Below, piece after piece: positions 12,533-51,470 of a DNA stretch of 64,000 bases. The notes under the pieces were generated by a model. The model had not been told where the DNA came from, ran no database searches, and saw only the letters and a program-made list of their open reading frames with translations. Each line of letters opens with the position of its first letter. The stretch's first letter is position 1. The position numbers and the translations under genes were made by a program. The stretch lies in the sequence record MW286157.1. One strand, written 5' to 3'. This DNA is from Escherichia phage vB_EcoM-BECP11.

Positions 12533-13189
12533 TTATTTAGCCCTTCCTAATATTCTGGCCGCCTGAGCACATATTGATTCAAGGCGGTCATTACTTATAT
12601 GATCATTTCTATACCAGTACATGGTTATTGTTCCAGCATAGATATTATCCAAATTAAAATATGGACAACTGTACATGTAGTTTATTTCGGGAGTAGGCTT
12701 TTTAGTTGGTAAAAAAGCAAATTTTGAGTTGGAATAATAATGACGTCCATTTAAATGAACTGCATATTCATCCATAGTTTTATCAACAGGATATCCTCCA
12801 AGTGATTTTTCACTTATTGTTGAAGGTAATTTTCCTTCATATGCTATAATATCAACAAAATAGTTTAAGTTTTTAGGGCGGAAAGAATACACCGCACTAA
12901 AGTCTGCCTCAGATGATATGTGAACTATCTGGAGTTGTTCCAGGGCGACAGATTCAAAGCGTGCATTTCTTTCCTTTTCAATAATTTCACTGTATGTTTC
13001 ATACTTTGATTGCTTATAGTACTCAAAGAAACTATCTCCCCTATACCAAACAATCGCCATCATAAACAAAAGAATTACGACAGCTACCCGGGAAGCAAGA
13101 ACTTTCCCGGTAGCGTTATCTTTGAACAAGCGATCTAGAACACCAAATAGAATATCAGAGGGCGAAAATGATATTCTAGGTGCTGCCAT
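12533..13189 (-). CDS. t: holin T (218 aa)
   Basis: 218 aa with one N-terminal TM helix (VAVVILLFMMAIVWY) and a large periplasmic domain; matches T4 holin as recalled. Confidence 0.9.
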   Translation of the reverse strand: MAAPRISFSPSDILFGVLDRLFKDNATGKVLASRVAVVILLFMMAIVWYRGDSFFEYYKQSKYETYSEIIEKERNARFESVALEQLQIVHISSEADFSAVYSFRPKNLNYFVDIIAYEGKLPSTISEKSLGGYPVDKTMDEYAVHLNGRHYYSNSKFAFLPTKKPTPEINYMYSCPYFNLDNIYAGTITMYWYRNDHISNDRLESICAQAARILGRAK

Positions 13190-13219
13190 AGACCCTCCTT
13201 TTAAGGATATTTATTCAAA

Positions 13220-17360
<4,141 letters not shown>

Positions 17361-42458: not shown

Positions 42459-42464
42459 GTTGAG

Positions 42465-42488
42465 GACTCCTTCGGGAGTCCTTTTTTA
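42465..42488 (+). terminator. rho-independent terminator
   Basis: GGACTCC-TTCG-GGAGTCC hairpin followed by TTTTTT. Confidence 0.7.
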
Positions 42489-42568: not shown

Positions 42569-42901
42569 ATGAAAACGATTAATCTGAACGCTGCAGTTAA
42601 AGCTAAATGCTTCAATGGTGAATATAACGAAACTATGTGGTTCTTAATGGCAGTTGAAGGTGATATTATTGAAGTAGAAACAACAGAAGGTATGGGAACA
42701 GATTTCACCTTTACAATTCAAGTTCATAATTTCTTTACTGGTTGGATTTATGAATTGAATACAGTAATCGTTGGAAAAATTGAACAAAATGAATTAGGTG
42801 AATGGTATTATGTTACAGCTCGCCAACGTGCCGAACGCTTAATTGAGAAGATGAAAAAAGTCGGTAAACTTGACATGAAGCACTGGAAAGTAGTAAAATA
42901 A
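42569..42901 (+). CDS. hypothetical protein (110 aa)
   Basis: RBS AAGGAGAATAAA after early promoter 42513-42542. Confidence 0.5.
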   Translation: MKTINLNAAVKAKCFNGEYNETMWFLMAVEGDIIEVETTEGMGTDFTFTIQVHNFFTGWIYELNTVIVGKIEQNELGEWYYVTARQRAERLIEKMKKVGKLDMKHWKVVK

Positions 42902-43664: not shown

Positions 43665-43861
43665 TGAAATTCTTTTTAGGTCAAACTGTTGAATTAAAGG
43701 GAGTTGGTATACCTGGATTAATTTCTAAGGTTCTACCTCCATTTAAATGGAGTGGTGTTCAAATAAAAGAGGCTTATATTGTTTCCTGGGTAGATGGAAA
43801 TGAAGACCTTCGTATGGGTGATGAATTGTCTCCTATTTACGGATTAAAGGAATTAGTATGA
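43664..43861 (+). CDS. hypothetical protein (65 aa)
   Basis: TAATG overlap with upstream gene. Confidence 0.4.
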   Translation: MKFFLGQTVELKGVGIPGLISKVLPPFKWSGVQIKEAYIVSWVDGNEDLRMGDELSPIYGLKELV

Positions 43862-44064
43862 ATATAATTAATAAGATTTTTGGAATTCAGTACATTAAGG
43901 TCACATATAAAGTAACAGATAAAAATCCATATACTGATGAACATGAAGAACCACAAGTTGAGTCTATTATATTAGAAAAGGACCCTAACTGGCCAGTTGA
44001 ATTTCGTCTTCCTTGCTATGGTCATTGGGCTGATGTTGAAATTATAAGTATTGAAAATGTCTGA
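43858..44064 (+). CDS. hypothetical protein (68 aa)
   Basis: ATGA overlap with upstream gene. Confidence 0.4.
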   Translation: MNIINKIFGIQYIKVTYKVTDKNPYTDEHEEPQVESIILEKDPNWPVEFRLPCYGHWADVEIISIENV

Positions 44065-44515
44065 GTTAGAGATTAGAAGCAATTTTAGATGGCCATCGTG
44101 TGCATTAAGTAATTTCGCCCAATGGCCTTTCGTCATGGATGGTATTCAATTCGGAGGTCTTGAAGGATTCCTCCAAGGATGCAAGGTGAAAAATGTTGAA
44201 CAACAAAAACGTATATTTGGGCTCTCCGGCTTGGCCGCCCAGCAAAGTGGAAGAGCTTATGCAAGAGCTGCGGACCGTGGGACGCTTTTCTGGCTTGGAA
44301 TTCCCTTTTCAAGATACTCTGCAGCATGGAAAGAGTTGTATACAAATGCATATTTTGAAGCAGCGATTCAAAACAAGGGGTTTCGTGATGCCTTACAAGC
44401 CTCTAAAGGAAAAATTTTGAAGCATAGCATGGCTAGTGGTCTAACAAAAGATGATACAATACTAACCGAAGCTGAATTTATTGATGTGTTAAACCTATTA
44501 AGAGACTCTCTATGA
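44051..44515 (+). CDS. NADAR-like (DUF1768/YbiA-like) protein (154 aa), assigned by motif only
   Basis: LSNFAQWPFVMDGIQFGGLEGFLQGCKV resembles the YbiA/NADAR signature FSNFAAWP..DG..........E.YFQA.K as I recall it; locally GC-richer codon usage. Confidence 0.45.
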   Translation: MKMSELEIRSNFRWPSCALSNFAQWPFVMDGIQFGGLEGFLQGCKVKNVEQQKRIFGLSGLAAQQSGRAYARAADRGTLFWLGIPFSRYSAAWKELYTNAYFEAAIQNKGFRDALQASKGKILKHSMASGLTKDDTILTEAEFIDVLNLLRDSL

Positions 44516-45348
44516 AGCCTACTATTTTGACTGATATTGACGGGGTGTGTTTAAGCTGGCAATCGGGCCTTCCTTATTTTGCCCAAAAATATAATCTTCC
44601 GTTGGAACATATTTTAAAAATGATTCAGGACGAAAAATTTATTTCTCCTGGTAAGCTCTTTAATTGCGATGAAGAACTTGGTGTTAAATTAATCGAAAAG
44701 TATAATCGTTCAGATTTTATTCGCTATTTGTCTCCATATAAAGATGCCCTGTGTGTAATTAACAAATTAAAAGAAGATTATAATTTTGTAGCTGTTACAG
44801 CACTGGGTGATTCTATTGACGCTCTGCTGAATCGTCAATTTAATTTGAATGCTCTTTTTCCTGGTGCCTTCTCAGAAGTATTGATGTGTGGTCATGATTC
44901 TTCAAAAGAAGAGTTGTTCAAAAAGGCAAAAGAGAAATATAACGTAATTTGTTATATTGACGATCTCGCTCACCACTGCGATCATGCGAGTGAAATATTA
45001 AATGTTCCTGTTTATTGGATGGCTCGAGGGGAGCGTGACAGTATTCCAAAAACTGCACAGCGAGTTTATACATGGAATGATGTAGAGAATAAGCTTTTTC
45101 CATCGAATGAAAATAAAGAAAGTTTTGATAGTGAAAAAGCTATAAAAGATGTAATTGAAAAGATGATTAAAAATGATTCTTTTCCTTGGAACACTACCTG
45201 GAGAACTCCTGGATTTAATCCTTATAATCTATATCATCCATATCAGACGCATCCGTTTCAGACATGGAACTATATTAAACCCGGTGGCATAGAGTATTTG
45301 TATAATAGACCTACTAGTGGTGATAATATTTTCCAAGGAGCATTCTAA
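44512..45348 (+). CDS. HAD-superfamily phosphatase-like protein (278 aa), putative nucleotidase
   Basis: N-terminal HAD motif I ILTDIDGV and a later acidic motif ICYIDDLAHH; function inferred from motifs only. Confidence 0.5.
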   Translation: MKPTILTDIDGVCLSWQSGLPYFAQKYNLPLEHILKMIQDEKFISPGKLFNCDEELGVKLIEKYNRSDFIRYLSPYKDALCVINKLKEDYNFVAVTALGDSIDALLNRQFNLNALFPGAFSEVLMCGHDSSKEELFKKAKEKYNVICYIDDLAHHCDHASEILNVPVYWMARGERDSIPKTAQRVYTWNDVENKLFPSNENKESFDSEKAIKDVIEKMIKNDSFPWNTTWRTPGFNPYNLYHPYQTHPFQTWNYIKPGGIEYLYNRPTSGDNIFQGAF

Positions 45349-45617
45349 TGTTTGTCGTTCACACTATTTATGAAAATGAAGGTAATACTACACGTGATTA
45401 CGGTCACGTAAATCAATTTTTTAGATGCAATCCAGAATTCCGAGCTCAAAAAGACGAACGAATTTTTAAAAAATGTGTAGAGCAAGGTTTCATTTACGTC
45501 AAGCACTGGATGCAAGGAAATAAAGTTAGAACCACGTACCACAGGTCTTTGACTGAGCTTAATGATGAATTGATTTATAATAGAGCTGTAAACCAAACTC
45601 TAAAGGATGAACAATGA
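45348..45617 (+). CDS. hypothetical protein (89 aa)
   Basis: TAATG overlap upstream; ATGA overlap with gene 30. Confidence 0.45.
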   Translation: MFVVHTIYENEGNTTRDYGHVNQFFRCNPEFRAQKDERIFKKCVEQGFIYVKHWMQGNKVRTTYHRSLTELNDELIYNRAVNQTLKDEQ

Positions 45618-47077
45618 TTCTTAAAATTCTGAATGAAATAGCATCTATTGGTTCAACTAAGCAAAAGCAAGCAATTCTTGAAAAGAATAAAGATAATGAA
45701 TTGCTCAAACGAGTATATCGTCTGACTTATTCTCGTGGGTTACAGTATTATATCAAGAAATGGCCTAAACCTGGTATTGCTACCCAGAGTTTTGGAATGT
45801 TGACTCTTACCGATATGCTTGACTTCATTGAATTCACATTAGCTACTCGGAAATTGACTGGAAATGCGGCAATTGAGGAATTAACTGGATATATTACTGA
45901 CGGTAAAAAAGATGATGTTGAAGTTTTGCGTCGGGTGATGATGCGAGACCTTGAATGCGGTGCATCAGTATCTATTGCAAACAAAGTTTGGCCAGGTTTA
46001 ATTCCTGAACAACCTCAAATGCTGGCAAGTTCTTATGATGAAAAAGGCATTAATAAGAATATCAAATTTCCAGCCTTTGCCCAATTAAAAGCTGATGGAG
46101 CTCGGTGCTTTGCTGAAGTCAGAGGTGATGAATTAGATGATGTTCGTCTTTTATCACGAGCTGGTAATGAATATCTAGGATTAGATCTTCTCAAGGAAGA
46201 GTTAATCAAAATGACTGCAGAAGCTCGCCAGATTCATCCAGAAGGTGTGTTAATTGATGGCGAATTGGTATACCATGAGCAAGTTGAAAAGGAGCCAGAA
46301 GGCCTAGATTTTCTTTTTGATGCTTATCCTGAAATTAGTAAAGCTAAAGAATTCGCCGAAGTAGCTGAATCACGTACTACTTCTAATGGAATCGCTAATA
46401 AATCTTTAAAGGGAACTATTTCAGAAAAAGAAGCTCAATGCATGAAGTTTCAGGTCTGGGATTATGTTCCGTTGGTAGAAATATACGGTCTTCCGGCGTT
46501 TCGTTTAAAATATGATGTACGTTTTTCTAAACTAGAACAAATGACATCAGGCTATGATAAAGTAATTTTAATTGAAAACCAAGTAGTAAATAACCTAGAT
46601 GAAGCTAAGGTAATTTACAAAAAGTATATTGACCAAGGTCTTGAAGGTATTATTCTCAAAAATATCGATGGATTATGGGAAAATGCTCGTTCAAAAAATC
46701 TTTATAAATTTAAAGAAGTAATTGATGTTGATTTAAAAATTGTAGGAATTTATCCTCACCGTAAAGACCCTACTAAAGCAGGTGGTTTCATTCTTGAATC
46801 AGAGTGTGGAAAAATTAAAGTAAATGCTGGTTCAGGCTTAAAAGATAAAGCCGGCGTAAAATCACATGAACTTGACCGTACTCGCATTATGGAAAACCAA
46901 AATTATTATATTGGAAAAATTCTAGAGTGCGAATGCAACGGCTGGGTAAAATTAGATGGACGTACTGATTACGTTAAGCTATTTCTTCCAATTGCAATTC
47001 GTTTACGTGAAGATAAAACTAAAGCTAATACGTTCGAAGATGTATTTGGCGATTTTCATGAGGTAACTGGTTTATGA
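45614..47077 (+). CDS. 30: ATP-dependent DNA ligase (487 aa)
   Basis: adenylation motif KADGAR (FAQLKADGARCFAEV); near-identical to T4 DNA ligase as recalled, same length. Confidence 0.95.
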   Translation: MILKILNEIASIGSTKQKQAILEKNKDNELLKRVYRLTYSRGLQYYIKKWPKPGIATQSFGMLTLTDMLDFIEFTLATRKLTGNAAIEELTGYITDGKKDDVEVLRRVMMRDLECGASVSIANKVWPGLIPEQPQMLASSYDEKGINKNIKFPAFAQLKADGARCFAEVRGDELDDVRLLSRAGNEYLGLDLLKEELIKMTAEARQIHPEGVLIDGELVYHEQVEKEPEGLDFLFDAYPEISKAKEFAEVAESRTTSNGIANKSLKGTISEKEAQCMKFQVWDYVPLVEIYGLPAFRLKYDVRFSKLEQMTSGYDKVILIENQVVNNLDEAKVIYKKYIDQGLEGIILKNIDGLWENARSKNLYKFKEVIDVDLKIVGIYPHRKDPTKAGGFILESECGKIKVNAGSGLKDKAGVKSHELDRTRIMENQNYYIGKILECECNGWVKLDGRTDYVKLFLPIAIRLREDKTKANTFEDVFGDFHEVTGL

Positions 47078-47315: not shown

Positions 47316-49409
47316 ATGGAACTTATTACAGAATTATTTGACGAAGATACTACTCTTCCGATTACAAACTTAAATCCAAAGAAGAAAATACCACAAATTT
47401 TTTCAGTTCATGTTGATGATGCAATTGAACAACCAGGCTTTCGTTTATGTACCTATACATCTGGAGGTGATACTAATCGCGATTTAAAGATGGGCGATAA
47501 AATGATGCATATTGTTCCTTTTACATTAACTGCTAAAGGCTCAATTGCTAAATTAAAAGGTCTTGGTCCAAGCCCAATTAATTATATCAATTCAGTTTTT
47601 ACTGTTGCAATGCAAACGATGCGTCAATATAAAATTGATGCCTGCATGCTTCGTATTCTTAAGTCTAAAACTGCTGGCCAAGCTCGACAAATTCAAGTTA
47701 TTGCTGATAGACTTATCCGTAGTCGTTCAGGTGGCAGATACGTCCTTCTTAAGGAACTCTGGGATTACGATAAAAAGTATGCATATATTCTTATACATCG
47801 CAAAAATGTATCATTAGAAGACATTCCAGGAGTTCCAGAAATTAGCACTGAACTCTTTACTAAAGTTGAATCGAAGGTCGGTGATGTTTATATCAATAAA
47901 GATACTGGAGCTCAAGTAACTAAAAATGAAGCAATTGCAGCATCTATTGCACAAGAAAATGATAAACGTTCTGACCAAGCTGTAATCGTTAAAGTTAAAA
48001 TTTCCCGTAGAGCAATTGCACAAAGTCAGTCATTGGAATCTTCTAGATTTGAAAGTGAATTATTCCAGAAGTATGAATCTACAGCAGCCAATTTTAATAA
48101 ACCAGCTACTGCACCTTTAATTCCCGAAGCAGAAGAAATGAAAATTGGAATTAATTCATTAGCTTCTAAAACAAAGGCAGCAAAAATTATTGCTGAAGGA
48201 ACGGCAGATGAACTTCACTATGATTATAAATTCTTTCCAATGAGTCAAGTCGGTGAAGTTTCAGAAAAAATTAAAGAAGTAATTTTTAATGCAATTAAAA
48301 ATGAACCAACTACTTCAATAAAATGTTTAGAGAAATACGCAGCAGCTGTAAATCAATTCTTTGAAGATTATAAAGATAAATGGCTTGCTAATCATAATAA
48401 AAATCGTAAAGGACAACCAGATGAAGTCTGGGAAGAAATAACTAAAAATTCCTGGAACGCAGCAAAAACTAAATTCCTCAAACGAATGATTTACAGTTTT
48501 TCTGGAATTGGTGCTGGTCCAATGATTGATATTACTATTGCCCGCGATGGTTCTAAATATACTCCATCACAAAAGCGTGGCATTAGAGAATATTGCGGTT
48601 CAGGATATACTGACATCAATAATCTTCTTTTAGGTCGTTACAATCCAGAACGATACGATGTAATGAGTGAAAAAGAAATTGAATCTGCTATAAATAACTT
48701 AGATTCAGCTTTTGAAAATGGTGACCGTATACCAGAAGGCATTACAGTTTATCGTGCTCAAAGTATGACTGCTCCTATATATGAAGCGTTAGTTAAAAAT
48801 AAAGTGTTCTACTTCAGAAATTTTGTATCTACTTCTTTAACTCCTATCATTTTTGGACGTTTTGGAATCACACATGCTGGTATTGGTCTTTTAGAACCAG
48901 AAGCTCGCAATGAATTAACAGTTGATAAAAATGAAGAAGGAATAACTATTAATCCAAACGAAATAAGAGCGTATAAAGAAAATCCTGAATATGTTAAAGT
49001 TCAAATAGGATGGGCAATTGATGGAGCTCATAAAGTTAATGTTGTATATCCAGGAAGTCTCGGAATAGCAACAGAAGCTGAAGTTATTCTACCACGCGGA
49101 TTGATGGTCAAGGTTAATAAAATAACTGATGCTTCTAATAATGACGGAACAACATCTAATAATACAAAACTCATTCAAGCTGAAGTTATGACCACGGAAG
49201 AGCTCACCGAATCGGTAATCTATGATGGAGACCATTTAATGGAAACTGGTGAATTGGTTGCAATGACAGGTGATATTGAAATAGAAGACAGAGTTGACTT
49301 TGCATCATTTGTTTCATCAAATATTAAACAGAAAGTAGAATCATCTCTTGGAATTATTGCGTCTTGCATAGATATTACAAACATGCCTTACAAGTTCGTT
49401 CAAGGATAA
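47316..49409 (+). CDS. alt: Alt, capsid-packaged mono-ADP-ribosyltransferase (697 aa)
   Basis: N-terminus MELITELFDEDTTLPITNLNPKKKIPQIFSVHVDD matches T4 Alt as recalled; ART motifs YRAQ, FVSTSL, EAEVILPRG. Confidence 0.9.
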   Translation: MELITELFDEDTTLPITNLNPKKKIPQIFSVHVDDAIEQPGFRLCTYTSGGDTNRDLKMGDKMMHIVPFTLTAKGSIAKLKGLGPSPINYINSVFTVAMQTMRQYKIDACMLRILKSKTAGQARQIQVIADRLIRSRSGGRYVLLKELWDYDKKYAYILIHRKNVSLEDIPGVPEISTELFTKVESKVGDVYINKDTGAQVTKNEAIAASIAQENDKRSDQAVIVKVKISRRAIAQSQSLESSRFESELFQKYESTAANFNKPATAPLIPEAEEMKIGINSLASKTKAAKIIAEGTADELHYDYKFFPMSQVGEVSEKIKEVIFNAIKNEPTTSIKCLEKYAAAVNQFFEDYKDKWLANHNKNRKGQPDEVWEEITKNSWNAAKTKFLKRMIYSFSGIGAGPMIDITIARDGSKYTPSQKRGIREYCGSGYTDINNLLLGRYNPERYDVMSEKEIESAINNLDSAFENGDRIPEGITVYRAQSMTAPIYEALVKNKVFYFRNFVSTSLTPIIFGRFGITHAGIGLLEPEARNELTVDKNEEGITINPNEIRAYKENPEYVKVQIGWAIDGAHKVNVVYPGSLGIATEAEVILPRGLMVKVNKITDASNNDGTTSNNTKLIQAEVMTTEELTESVIYDGDHLMETGELVAMTGDIEIEDRVDFASFVSSNIKQKVESSLGIIASCIDITNMPYKFVQG

Positions 49410-49412
49410 ATC

Positions 49413-51470
49413 ATGGAACTTATTACAGAATTATTTGACGGCGCTTCGGCGCCGGTTGTTAACTTAAATCCTAAGCATAAAATACCTCAAATTTTTGCTA
49501 TTCAAGCAGGTGAAGAAAGCGTGCTTCCTGGATTTAGATTTTGTACATACACCTCTGGCGGTGATACGAATAAAAACGTTAAGCCAGGCGACAAAATGAT
49601 GCATATCGTAATGATAGGTGTTAATGAGAAACTATCATTAGTTAAGCTTAAAAACTTGGGTGGAAATCCAATTGGCGTCATTAATGCTGTTTTTGATACT
49701 GCTCTTCAAACAATGAAGCAGTATAAAATTGATGCATGCCTATTCCGCGTACTAAAAAGTAAAACAAATGGCGCAGCTCGTCAAATGCAAGTTATTGCTG
49801 ACCGTTTAGTACGTACTAAAGGAGCAGGTCGATATGTTCTTTTAAAGGAAATCTGGGATTATGATAAAAAGTACGCATATATTATGGTTTACCGTAAAAA
49901 TGCCAATTTAGAAGACATTCCAGGTGTACCTCCTATTTCAACCGAGTTATTCACAAAAGTTGAATCAAAGGTTGGTGATGTTTATGTAGACGTTAAAACA
50001 GGTAATGCTGTTCCTAAAGCTGTTGCTGTTGCTGCTTCTATTGCTTTAGAAAATGATAAGCGCACGGATCAAGCTGTTATTCAGAAAACTAAAATTAGTC
50101 GTCGATTAGCAGCACAAGCTCAATATTCTACTGTTGATGCTTCACTTCAGGGTGATAGCTTCGCTGCTAAGAAATATCAAGAGTTTGAATCTAAAGTTCC
50201 GGTATATAAAGCAGAAGGACCAATGAACTCTGGCGTTATTCAGGTTGGTTCAAACTTTAGCAAAGGAGCTATCGGTGGTATGAGAAGTGCTTCTCGTTTT
50301 AAATCTAGTGATTATGAACTCGAAAGCTTCCGAAATCATATTGCATTGGCCCATGCACGTTTACGCGATCCATCTATCAAGCTGCAGAGCGATATAACAT
50401 ATCAAGGTTCTCAAGAATATTTAAAGAATAAAGAATTCTTTGATTATAAAACTGATAAAATTTTAAGCGATCTTGCTGACATTAATATTTCTAATAGCTT
50501 TGATGTTATTAAGAAAATTGTCAATGATTTAGTTAAAGGTTCTAAAGCTACACCAGATGAAAAGACAGCTATTATTCAATTTGTAATGAACGGAATTTAT
50601 AAATTAATTGATGAATCTGCTGCTCAGGCATATGAATATGCAAGCACTGAAGTAACTCCAAAAGGATTAACTCAGGCTGAGTCTGATGTAATTGAAGATT
50701 ATTGCGCAGATTCATATGTTGAAATGAACTCGTTCCTTCTAGGTAAACCTGATTCTACCCGTGAAGAATATATGGAACGAGCTATTAAACATATTGAGAC
50801 GCTGGATTCTGCATTTTCTAAAGGTTCAGTTCTTCCTCCAGGAACTACTCTTTATCGTGGGCAAGAAGTTACCTTTAAAACTTTACGTCATAATATAGAA
50901 AATAAAATGTTCTATTTCAAGAACTTTGTATCTACTTCACTCAAGCCAAATATCTTCGGTGAATATGGTAAAAATTATATGGCCTTAGATGATTCCGGAG
51001 CAGTATTTTCTGGTGAAGGAGAAGGTTCAGTTGATGCTGAAGATTTAATGCATATGGGTAGTCATTCTACATATGCGAATGAAGACGCTGAAACTAATGT
51101 AGGTATGGTAATTAAAGGAGCTGAACGAGTTAAAGTTATCGTTCCAGGTCATTTATCAGGATTTCCATCCGAAGCTGAAGTTATTTTGCCGCGTGGAATT
51201 TTACTGAAGATTAATAAAGTAAGTACGTACATGATGAAAGAAACTGCTTATAACAAGTATCTAATCGAAGGTACAATCGTTCCTCCTTCTGAACAATTAG
51301 AAGAATCAGTATATGATGGCGACCATCTGATGGAAACTGGTGAAGTTCGTCCAATGGCTGGATTTAATCAATTCCTTGTAGAAGAATCAAAAGAAGAGGA
51401 AAACGAAGTTTCTCAAATCTTAGCTTCTTTGGTTAACATCAACGGAATGTCTAAAAAGTTCAAAATGTAG
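49413..51470 (+). CDS. second Alt-like ADP-ribosyltransferase, tandem paralogue (685 aa)
   Basis: MELITELFDGASAPVVNLNPKHKIPQIF...; retains YRGQ, FVSTSL and EAEVILPRG motifs; central region diverges from the first copy. Confidence 0.8.
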   Translation: MELITELFDGASAPVVNLNPKHKIPQIFAIQAGEESVLPGFRFCTYTSGGDTNKNVKPGDKMMHIVMIGVNEKLSLVKLKNLGGNPIGVINAVFDTALQTMKQYKIDACLFRVLKSKTNGAARQMQVIADRLVRTKGAGRYVLLKEIWDYDKKYAYIMVYRKNANLEDIPGVPPISTELFTKVESKVGDVYVDVKTGNAVPKAVAVAASIALENDKRTDQAVIQKTKISRRLAAQAQYSTVDASLQGDSFAAKKYQEFESKVPVYKAEGPMNSGVIQVGSNFSKGAIGGMRSASRFKSSDYELESFRNHIALAHARLRDPSIKLQSDITYQGSQEYLKNKEFFDYKTDKILSDLADINISNSFDVIKKIVNDLVKGSKATPDEKTAIIQFVMNGIYKLIDESAAQAYEYASTEVTPKGLTQAESDVIEDYCADSYVEMNSFLLGKPDSTREEYMERAIKHIETLDSAFSKGSVLPPGTTLYRGQEVTFKTLRHNIENKMFYFKNFVSTSLKPNIFGEYGKNYMALDDSGAVFSGEGEGSVDAEDLMHMGSHSTYANEDAETNVGMVIKGAERVKVIVPGHLSGFPSEAEVILPRGILLKINKVSTYMMKETAYNKYLIEGTIVPPSEQLEESVYDGDHLMETGEVRPMAGFNQFLVEESKEEENEVSQILASLVNINGMSKKFKM

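Follow-up and report, generated by a model that had tools for sequence, protein, structure and literature searches.

The open reading frame studied here is the ortholog of T4 gene 30.3, now named adfN, and occupies positions 44057..44515 on the plus strand of a 64,000-nucleotide stretch of DNA from Escherichia phage vB_EcoM-BECP11 (MW286157.1; hereafter the window). It very probably encodes a functional AdfN, a guanine-ADP-ribose hydrolase that would reverse DarT1 lesions on phage DNA. The orthology, synteny, fold, conserved residues and intactness of AdfN are established in this analysis, while the enzymology and the anti-DarTG1 phenotype come from published work on the 95%-identical T4 protein, and we infer that the same properties hold for this allele. 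AdfN is already known from T4, and the present findings add no new biology beyond the literature of 2023-2025.

In the mechanism that these data and publications would support, infection of a host carrying DarTG1 unleashes DarT1, whose ADP-ribosylation of guanines in phage DNA would block replication; AdfN would then hydrolyse the guanine-ADP-ribose bond, so restoring the base and allowing replication to proceed. Its target would be the DNA lesion itself, with no binding of the toxin. Catalysis is predicted to depend on Glu36 and Lys43, within a conserved EGFLQxxK segment, together with a residue of the last strand that is His123 in this phage clade, and the C-terminal helix would be required for full activity. 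The enzyme would be specific for guanine-ADP-ribose, leaving the thymidine-modifying DarTG2 uncountered, and would be expected to function fully only in T-even infection.

Locus and boundaries of adfN

The window derives from a T4-like (Tequatrovirus) phage genome and runs in reverse relative to the T4 reference. A 2.5-kb region surrounding adfN has 99.9% DNA identity to Escherichia phage vb_EcoM_bov9_1, where the AdfN protein is 100% identical, and more than 700 T-even records match this region. The gene order 30.6, 30.5, 30.4, 30.3, 30.2, 30.1, 30 (ligase), alt.1, alt is the same as in T4, and tblastn of all the genes neighbouring adfN gave 97-99% identity to their T4 counterparts. adfN holds the orthologous T-even position, with 30.4 before it, 30.2 after it and DNA ligase further downstream. 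The 30.4 ortholog (43858..44064, +) ends in a TGA stop at 44062-44064, giving an 8-nt overlap with the start of adfN, as in T4, and the 30.2 ortholog (44512..45348, +), which carries HAD-phosphatase-like motifs, begins with an ATG overlapping the adfN stop (ATGA). The initial annotation had described the reading frame as lying upstream of DNA ligase (gene 30, 45614-47077, with a PF01068 match), which is correct, but genes 30.2 and 30.1 intervene.

The reading frame had originally been delimited as 44051-44515 (+), with a 154-aa product. It is present on that strand, and both quoted strings, LSNFAQWPFVMDG and EGFLQGCKV, occur in its product, but the length and start require correction. TTG 44051 is merely the first ATG, GTG or TTG after a stop in the list of open reading frames, and gives 154 aa; ATG 44057 gives 152 aa followed by a TGA stop, and matches the start of the annotated T4 30.3 CDS exactly (459 bp, 152 aa), with the N-termini of homologs also beginning at this MSELEI/MDIGS position. 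The true start of adfN is almost certainly ATG 44057 rather than TTG 44051, and the in-frame TTG-AAA that precedes it (44051..44056, +) probably contributes nothing to the translated protein.

Within adfN, in another frame, lies a 75-aa ORF (44193-44420, +) that corresponds to the T4-annotated 30.3' ('internal translation in a different reading frame'). We rejected it as a second product of the locus: its identity to T4 is 71%, against 95% for the AdfN frame, the differences in its frame are nonsynonymous in 24 cases and synonymous in 8, and it was not found in an ortholog of 58% identity. Rather than a gene, 30.3' is probably a side effect of a GC-rich sequence with few stop codons.

Scanning the complete window for Rfam families and tRNAs gave no matches. 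A strong terminator-like hairpin at 42462-42483 (+), GAGGACTCC-TTCG-GGAGTCCTT followed by a T run, lies just 3' of a 30.9-like ORF, and a near-consensus promoter-like site (42870-42899, +; TTGACA-18-TAAAAT) lies at the end of 30.8; the two could mark the bounds of a transcription unit that includes adfN. A sigma-70 promoter scan of 41.5-47.5 kb found 24 sites against 22.2 +/- 5.4 in shuffled sequences, and since this is no enrichment we draw no claim about transcription units from the scan.

Further downstream, two full-length Alt-type ADP-ribosyltransferase genes stand in tandem at 47316-49409 and 49413-51470 (+), encoding 697 and 685 aa, both with matches to PF03496. Identity between the two proteins is 42%, and that of the first to T4 Alt only 71%. 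In the second, the 116 N-terminal aa share 95-98% identity with the small T4 ORFs alt.-1 and alt.-2, and by this sequence match alt.-1 and alt.-2 are identified as remnants of a second Alt paralog that has been lost from T4.

Family, fold and catalytic residues

AdfN matches Pfam PF08010 (Phage_30_3) with an E-value of 3.6e-67 over positions 1-138 of the 138-position profile, and with 225 bits against a cut-off of 36 bits the reading frame is far beyond chance. It also matches PHROG 652, a family without an assigned function. Searched alone, the protein found no match in NCBIfam, PADLOC (including DarG) or a single-sequence search of the PDB. Nor did it match PF08719 (NADAR) at E<=1, so that the direct profile match anticipated by the initial annotation did not materialise; Pfam places the protein in the separate family PF08010.

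Because these direct single-protein searches were empty, the link to NADAR enzymes runs through the family profile, transitive matches and a structure model. Among 61 full-length homologs of 35-89% identity, 23 also match PF08719, with a best E-value of 1.5e-7. The AdfN family profile searched against the PDB has E. coli YbiA (2b3w) as its sole meaningful match (E 0.007), in an alignment that pairs the SNFA segment and the E-x-x-x-Q-x-x-K segment of the two families. An AlphaFold2 model of AdfN built on the family alignment reached a pLDDT of 92.9 and a pTM of 0.88, and the top three Foldseek matches to this model are all NADARs, namely YbiA (E 9.6e-5, the best match), Phytophthora nicotianae 8bau and Geobacter lovleyi 8bat, with nothing beyond them below E = 1. 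AdfN as modelled is a single-domain protein with the NADAR fold, and its placement in the NADAR superfamily, by profile and model and despite the lack of a direct PF08719 match, is solid. The NADAR-like character proposed for the product at the outset is thus borne out, as is its likeness to YbiA in the structural comparison.

Comparison of AdfN with T4 gp30.3 is gapless, with 144 of 152 residues identical (95%). The eight substitutions, given from the window to T4, are K51R, S64A, A67S, A72Q, I82V, A89P, I120V and M125I, none of which falls at an invariant or a conserved catalytic position. E36, Q40 and K43 of the E-x-x-x-Q-x-x-K motif are all present and align to YbiA SEHYFQAQK. The predicted catalytic Glu36 (codon GAA, 44162..44164, +) is invariant in the 61 homologs and aligns with the Glu of SEHYFQAQK, and Lys43 (codon AAG, 44183..44185, +), predicted to be catalytic or to contact ADP-ribose, is conserved in at least 90% of them and aligns with the Lys of QAQKF. 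His123 (codon CAT, 44423..44425, +) lies in the last beta-strand of the model (E120-123) and is likewise invariant in the 61 homologs; a His in this strand is the published signature of the phage NADARs (PMC11125620). The C-terminal alpha-helix, residues 138-151 (44468..44509, +; H138-151 in the model), is intact, the C-terminus being identical to that of T4, and the protein is full length, with the frameshift of the RB69 type absent. The likeness to T4 gp30.3/AdfN therefore extends from the position of the gene and its overlaps with 30.4 and 30.2 to E36, K43, H123 and the C-terminal helix.

Other NADARs and anti-DarT factors differ from AdfN. DarG1, of which the Geobacter lovleyi NADAR 8bat is an example ('BC4488 family'), adjoins darT1, whereas AdfN is flanked by the orthologs of T4 30.4 and 30.2, and searches of the flanking genes with Pfam and PADLOC gave no match to DarT or any other defence system. 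DarG1 also has an N-terminal extension (219 aa in 8bat) that the 152-aa AdfN lacks, and has Asp in the last strand where AdfN has His123; in uninfected cells T4 AdfN is no substitute for it. YbiA (2b3w; PF08719 NADAR/DUF1768) is about 20% identical to AdfN and has a last-strand Glu in place of His123; it is encoded by a chromosomal housekeeping, riboflavin-linked gene in a LexA operon, while AdfN is phage-borne and without a direct PF08719 match. AdfN-Bas32 (Markadamsvirinae) and AdfN-Bas60 (Vequintavirinae) are, like the T4 type, phage NADARs that reverse DarTG1 defence, but they belong to other, independently acquired NADAR clades and, unlike the T4 type, act on any phage and neutralise DarT1 without infection. 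Two further T-even anti-DarT factors are of a different kind: AdfA (T4 61.2) is not an enzyme and, unlike AdfN, binds DarT1, and AdfM (T4 tk.4) is a macrodomain protein aimed at the thymidine-modifying DarTG2.

Function and competing explanations

Schuller et al. 2023 are cited as having listed T4 30.3 among the phage NADARs. Cihlova et al. 2024 (Toxins, PMC11125620) characterise the gp30.3 group by its last-strand His, a position held by Glu in YbiA and by Asp in DarT1-linked NADARs, and report that the T4 protein hydrolyses guanosine-ADPr in vitro, has no activity on thymidine-ADPr, and gives E. coli no protection against DarT1. The Methods of that paper (section 4.2) name the construct 'gp30.3; residues 1-208', which is at odds with the 152 aa of T4 gp30.3. 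This mismatch suggests that the protein studied may not have been the T4 sequence itself, or that the numbering may include tags. Some metagenomic AdfN homologs are 201 aa long (P0030, P0031, P0036).

Phage crosses traced the DarTG1 resistance of T-even phages to 30.3 (Johannesman et al., bioRxiv 2024, PMC11257639; Nat Commun 2025, PMC11825919), and the gene was there renamed adfN, for 'anti-DarT factor NADAR'. T4 AdfN is both necessary and sufficient against DarTG1 (PMC11825919). Once adfN is deleted, T4 and T2 become more sensitive to DarTG1 by about 4 logs; ectopic AdfN rescues RB69, a DarTG1-sensitive phage in whose own allele a frameshift has removed the last 15 residues (PMC11257639, PMC11825919). 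The same reports show that DarT1-modified DNA loses its ADP-ribose to purified T4 AdfN, that a two-hybrid assay detects no AdfN-DarT1 association, and that DarTG2 is not countered. E36A, K43A and truncation of the C-terminus each impair T4 AdfN, with partial rescue retained in E36A and K43A (PMC11825919). In a T4 transposon screen, insertions in 30.3/adfN were lost specifically on DarTG1 hosts (bioRxiv 10.1101/2025.11.20.689424). The role in counter-defence against DarT that the initial annotation had proposed is accordingly a published one for the 95%-identical T4 ortholog (PMC11825919, PMC11125620, bioRxiv 10.1101/2025.11.20.689424).

Without infection, T4 AdfN does not neutralise DarT1 in E. 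coli, and phages outside the T-even group gain hardly any benefit from it (PMC11825919, PMC11125620), indicating that a phage factor or context is needed and that the mechanism is incomplete. Full activity is seen only during T-even infection, and as DNA modification is not the reason, a further T-even factor is implied (PMC11825919). The adjoining gene 30.2 is a candidate for such a factor, and its product might process ADP-ribose once it is released, or an intermediate of the reaction, or it might stabilise AdfN, although we give this proposal very little credence. The invariant residues of gp30.2 (D8-x-D10, T96, K132 and D150-D151) fit the four HAD-phosphatase motifs, and weak matches were found to PF00702 (E 0.0025, in two of five orthologs), NT5C (E 0.044) and a 5'(3')-deoxyribonucleotidase in the PDB (E 0.16). 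The C-terminal ~80-100 aa are variable or absent in other genera, and a single-sequence AlphaFold model has a pLDDT of 38. The ATGA overlap of the 30.2 start with the adfN stop suggests that the two genes may be translationally coupled. Homologs of 30.2 occur in 1452 phage records, against 1510 for adfN, with nearly the same distribution over genera, and 30.2 adjoins adfN in Acinetobacter phage Tonic and stands two small genes away in Klebsiella phage PMBT1. As a conserved partner of adfN it was nevertheless rejected, the adjacency, or near-adjacency, in Escherichia, Acinetobacter and Klebsiella Straboviridae being explained by synteny alone; no 30.2 was found in the flanks (4-6 kb, less in cut contigs) of adfN in Aeromonas avDM1, Sinorhizobium phiM12, Rhizobium RHph_I34 or the two groups of metagenomic contigs L004-L009. 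The main text of the T4 transposon screen does not mention 30.2 (bioRxiv 10.1101/2025.11.20.689424), and a literature search found the term 'gp30.2' in no paper.

Of the other functions that could be assigned to AdfN, one alone keeps some weight, and it is compatible with the reversal of DarT1 lesions. The natural substrate could be broader than, or other than, these lesions, comprising marks left by other host ADP-ribosyltransferases or off-target products of the phage enzymes Alt, ModA and ModB, with DarTG1 as one case; we consider this unlikely. A NADAR would act on its mark whichever toxin had placed it and may detoxify other ADP-ribosylating defences, and the exchange of Glu or Asp for His may have shifted its specificity (PMC11825919). 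The two Alt-type genes (PF03496) stand 2.8-7 kb downstream of adfN in the same orientation, and alt stays near adfN in other Straboviridae, but this linkage is plain T4 synteny and no alt lies near AdfN homologs outside Straboviridae. Alt, ModA and ModB are known for modifying proteins and RNA ends rather than guanine bases. The genome-wide screen also gave a phenotype for adfN only on DarTG1 (bioRxiv 10.1101/2025.11.20.689424).

The structural likeness to YbiA, which is both the best Foldseek match (E 9.6e-5) and the only profile match in the PDB, and the naming of some homologs as 'YbiA' in databases, would suit a housekeeping N-glycosidase acting on intermediates of the riboflavin pathway and not on DNA. 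Such a role is highly improbable here: the last-strand Glu that defines the YbiA subfamily is invariantly replaced by His, at position 123, ADP-ribosylated DNA is a substrate of the T4 ortholog, whose phenotype is anti-DarTG1, and the published phylogeny sets the T4 clade nearest to the DarT1-linked NADARs and not to YbiA (PMC11825919). Just as improbable is a counter-defence without catalysis, in which AdfN would bind a defence protein or an ADP-ribosylated ligand. It has a precedent in another phage NADAR that acts non-enzymatically on Retron-Eco1, as cited in PMC11825919 (its ref. 37), and could account for the partial rescue still given by E36A and K43A (PMC11825919). Against it, the two-hybrid assay found no association with DarT1, the catalytic mutants are impaired, the purified enzyme strips ADP-ribose from DNA, and the catalytic residues are kept family-wide (E36 invariant and K43 in at least 90% of the 61 homologs). 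Hydrolysis of guanine-ADP-ribose on phage DNA is by far the most probable activity of the protein encoded here.

GC content, distribution and annotation

The adfN CDS has a GC content of 41.6% against 35.6% for the window. Among 459-bp sliding windows (sd 3.2%) this ranks at the 96th percentile, and among the 47 plus-strand ORFs of at least 100 aa it is second highest; the immediate neighbours of adfN have 31-38%. Second codon positions (0.43, against 0.26-0.37) and third ones (0.33, against 0.18-0.29) account for the excess, and AdfN is rich in Ala, Gly and Arg. The locally GC-richer patch remarked upon in the initial annotation is therefore real, but modest. The window's most GC-rich stretch lies elsewhere, at 12889-14989 (up to 53%), in the minus-strand genes 13220-14011 and 14031-17360; it comprises a gp38 tail-fibre adhesin of the T2/T6 type (PF05268, PF21721) together with the C-terminal region of gp37, including a Peptidase_S74 chaperone domain, and adjoins the holin t gene (12533-13189).

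The GC content had also been read as consistent with separate acquisition, and this part does not stand. That this phage gained adfN recently and separately by horizontal transfer is quite improbable, although the gene has, besides its overall excess, the highest GC3 among its 12 neighbours, and an ancient descent from DarG1-like NADARs has been proposed (PMC11825919). Divergence from T4 is also centred on the middle of the gene, with nucleotide differences at 32 of 228 positions in the central part and 8 of 231 at the ends, which suggests a patch of local recombination between T-even alleles, as in ordinary T-even mosaicism. Against a recent gain, the place of adfN is unchanged in T4, in the Straboviridae of Acinetobacter and Klebsiella and in a metagenomic T4-like contig with only 58% identity in AdfN, and homologs are found in as many as 1510 phage records. 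In that contig, too, adfN exceeds the other genes compared in GC (43.5% against 39.7%), and since the excess recurs in so distant an ortholog it carries no information on recent acquisition. It is in part a matter of amino-acid composition (Ala 11.2% against 6.5%), and is a conserved property of the gene with no sign of recent acquisition.

NADARs of the gp30.3 type that carry the invariant His are found beyond T4-like synteny as well (L004-L006, L007-L009 and L011), where no darT-like neighbour was evident from Pfam labels. L004-L006 are metagenomic contigs; for L004 the sampled contig is 308 kb and the locus has 55% GC. One such gene belongs to very large, gene-dense contigs and is close to NUDIX and Thg1-like genes. 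Another is located in 82-kb contigs, with GGDEF and SprT-like genes nearby, and in Aeromonas phage avDM1 it is embedded in a tRNA gene cluster.

Annotation of adfN orthologs lags behind the functional work of 2024-2025, one being labelled 'swarming motility YbiA-like protein' and one 'prohead core protein' (from an overlapping feature). The chief value of the present assignment lies in annotation, as the roughly 1500 deposited phage genomes that carry the gene mostly label it 'hypothetical protein'. An intact, full-length adfN with E36, K43 and H123 predicts resistance to guanine ADP-ribosylation of the DarTG1 type, and this predicted resistance would be relevant to the choice of T4-like phages for therapy.
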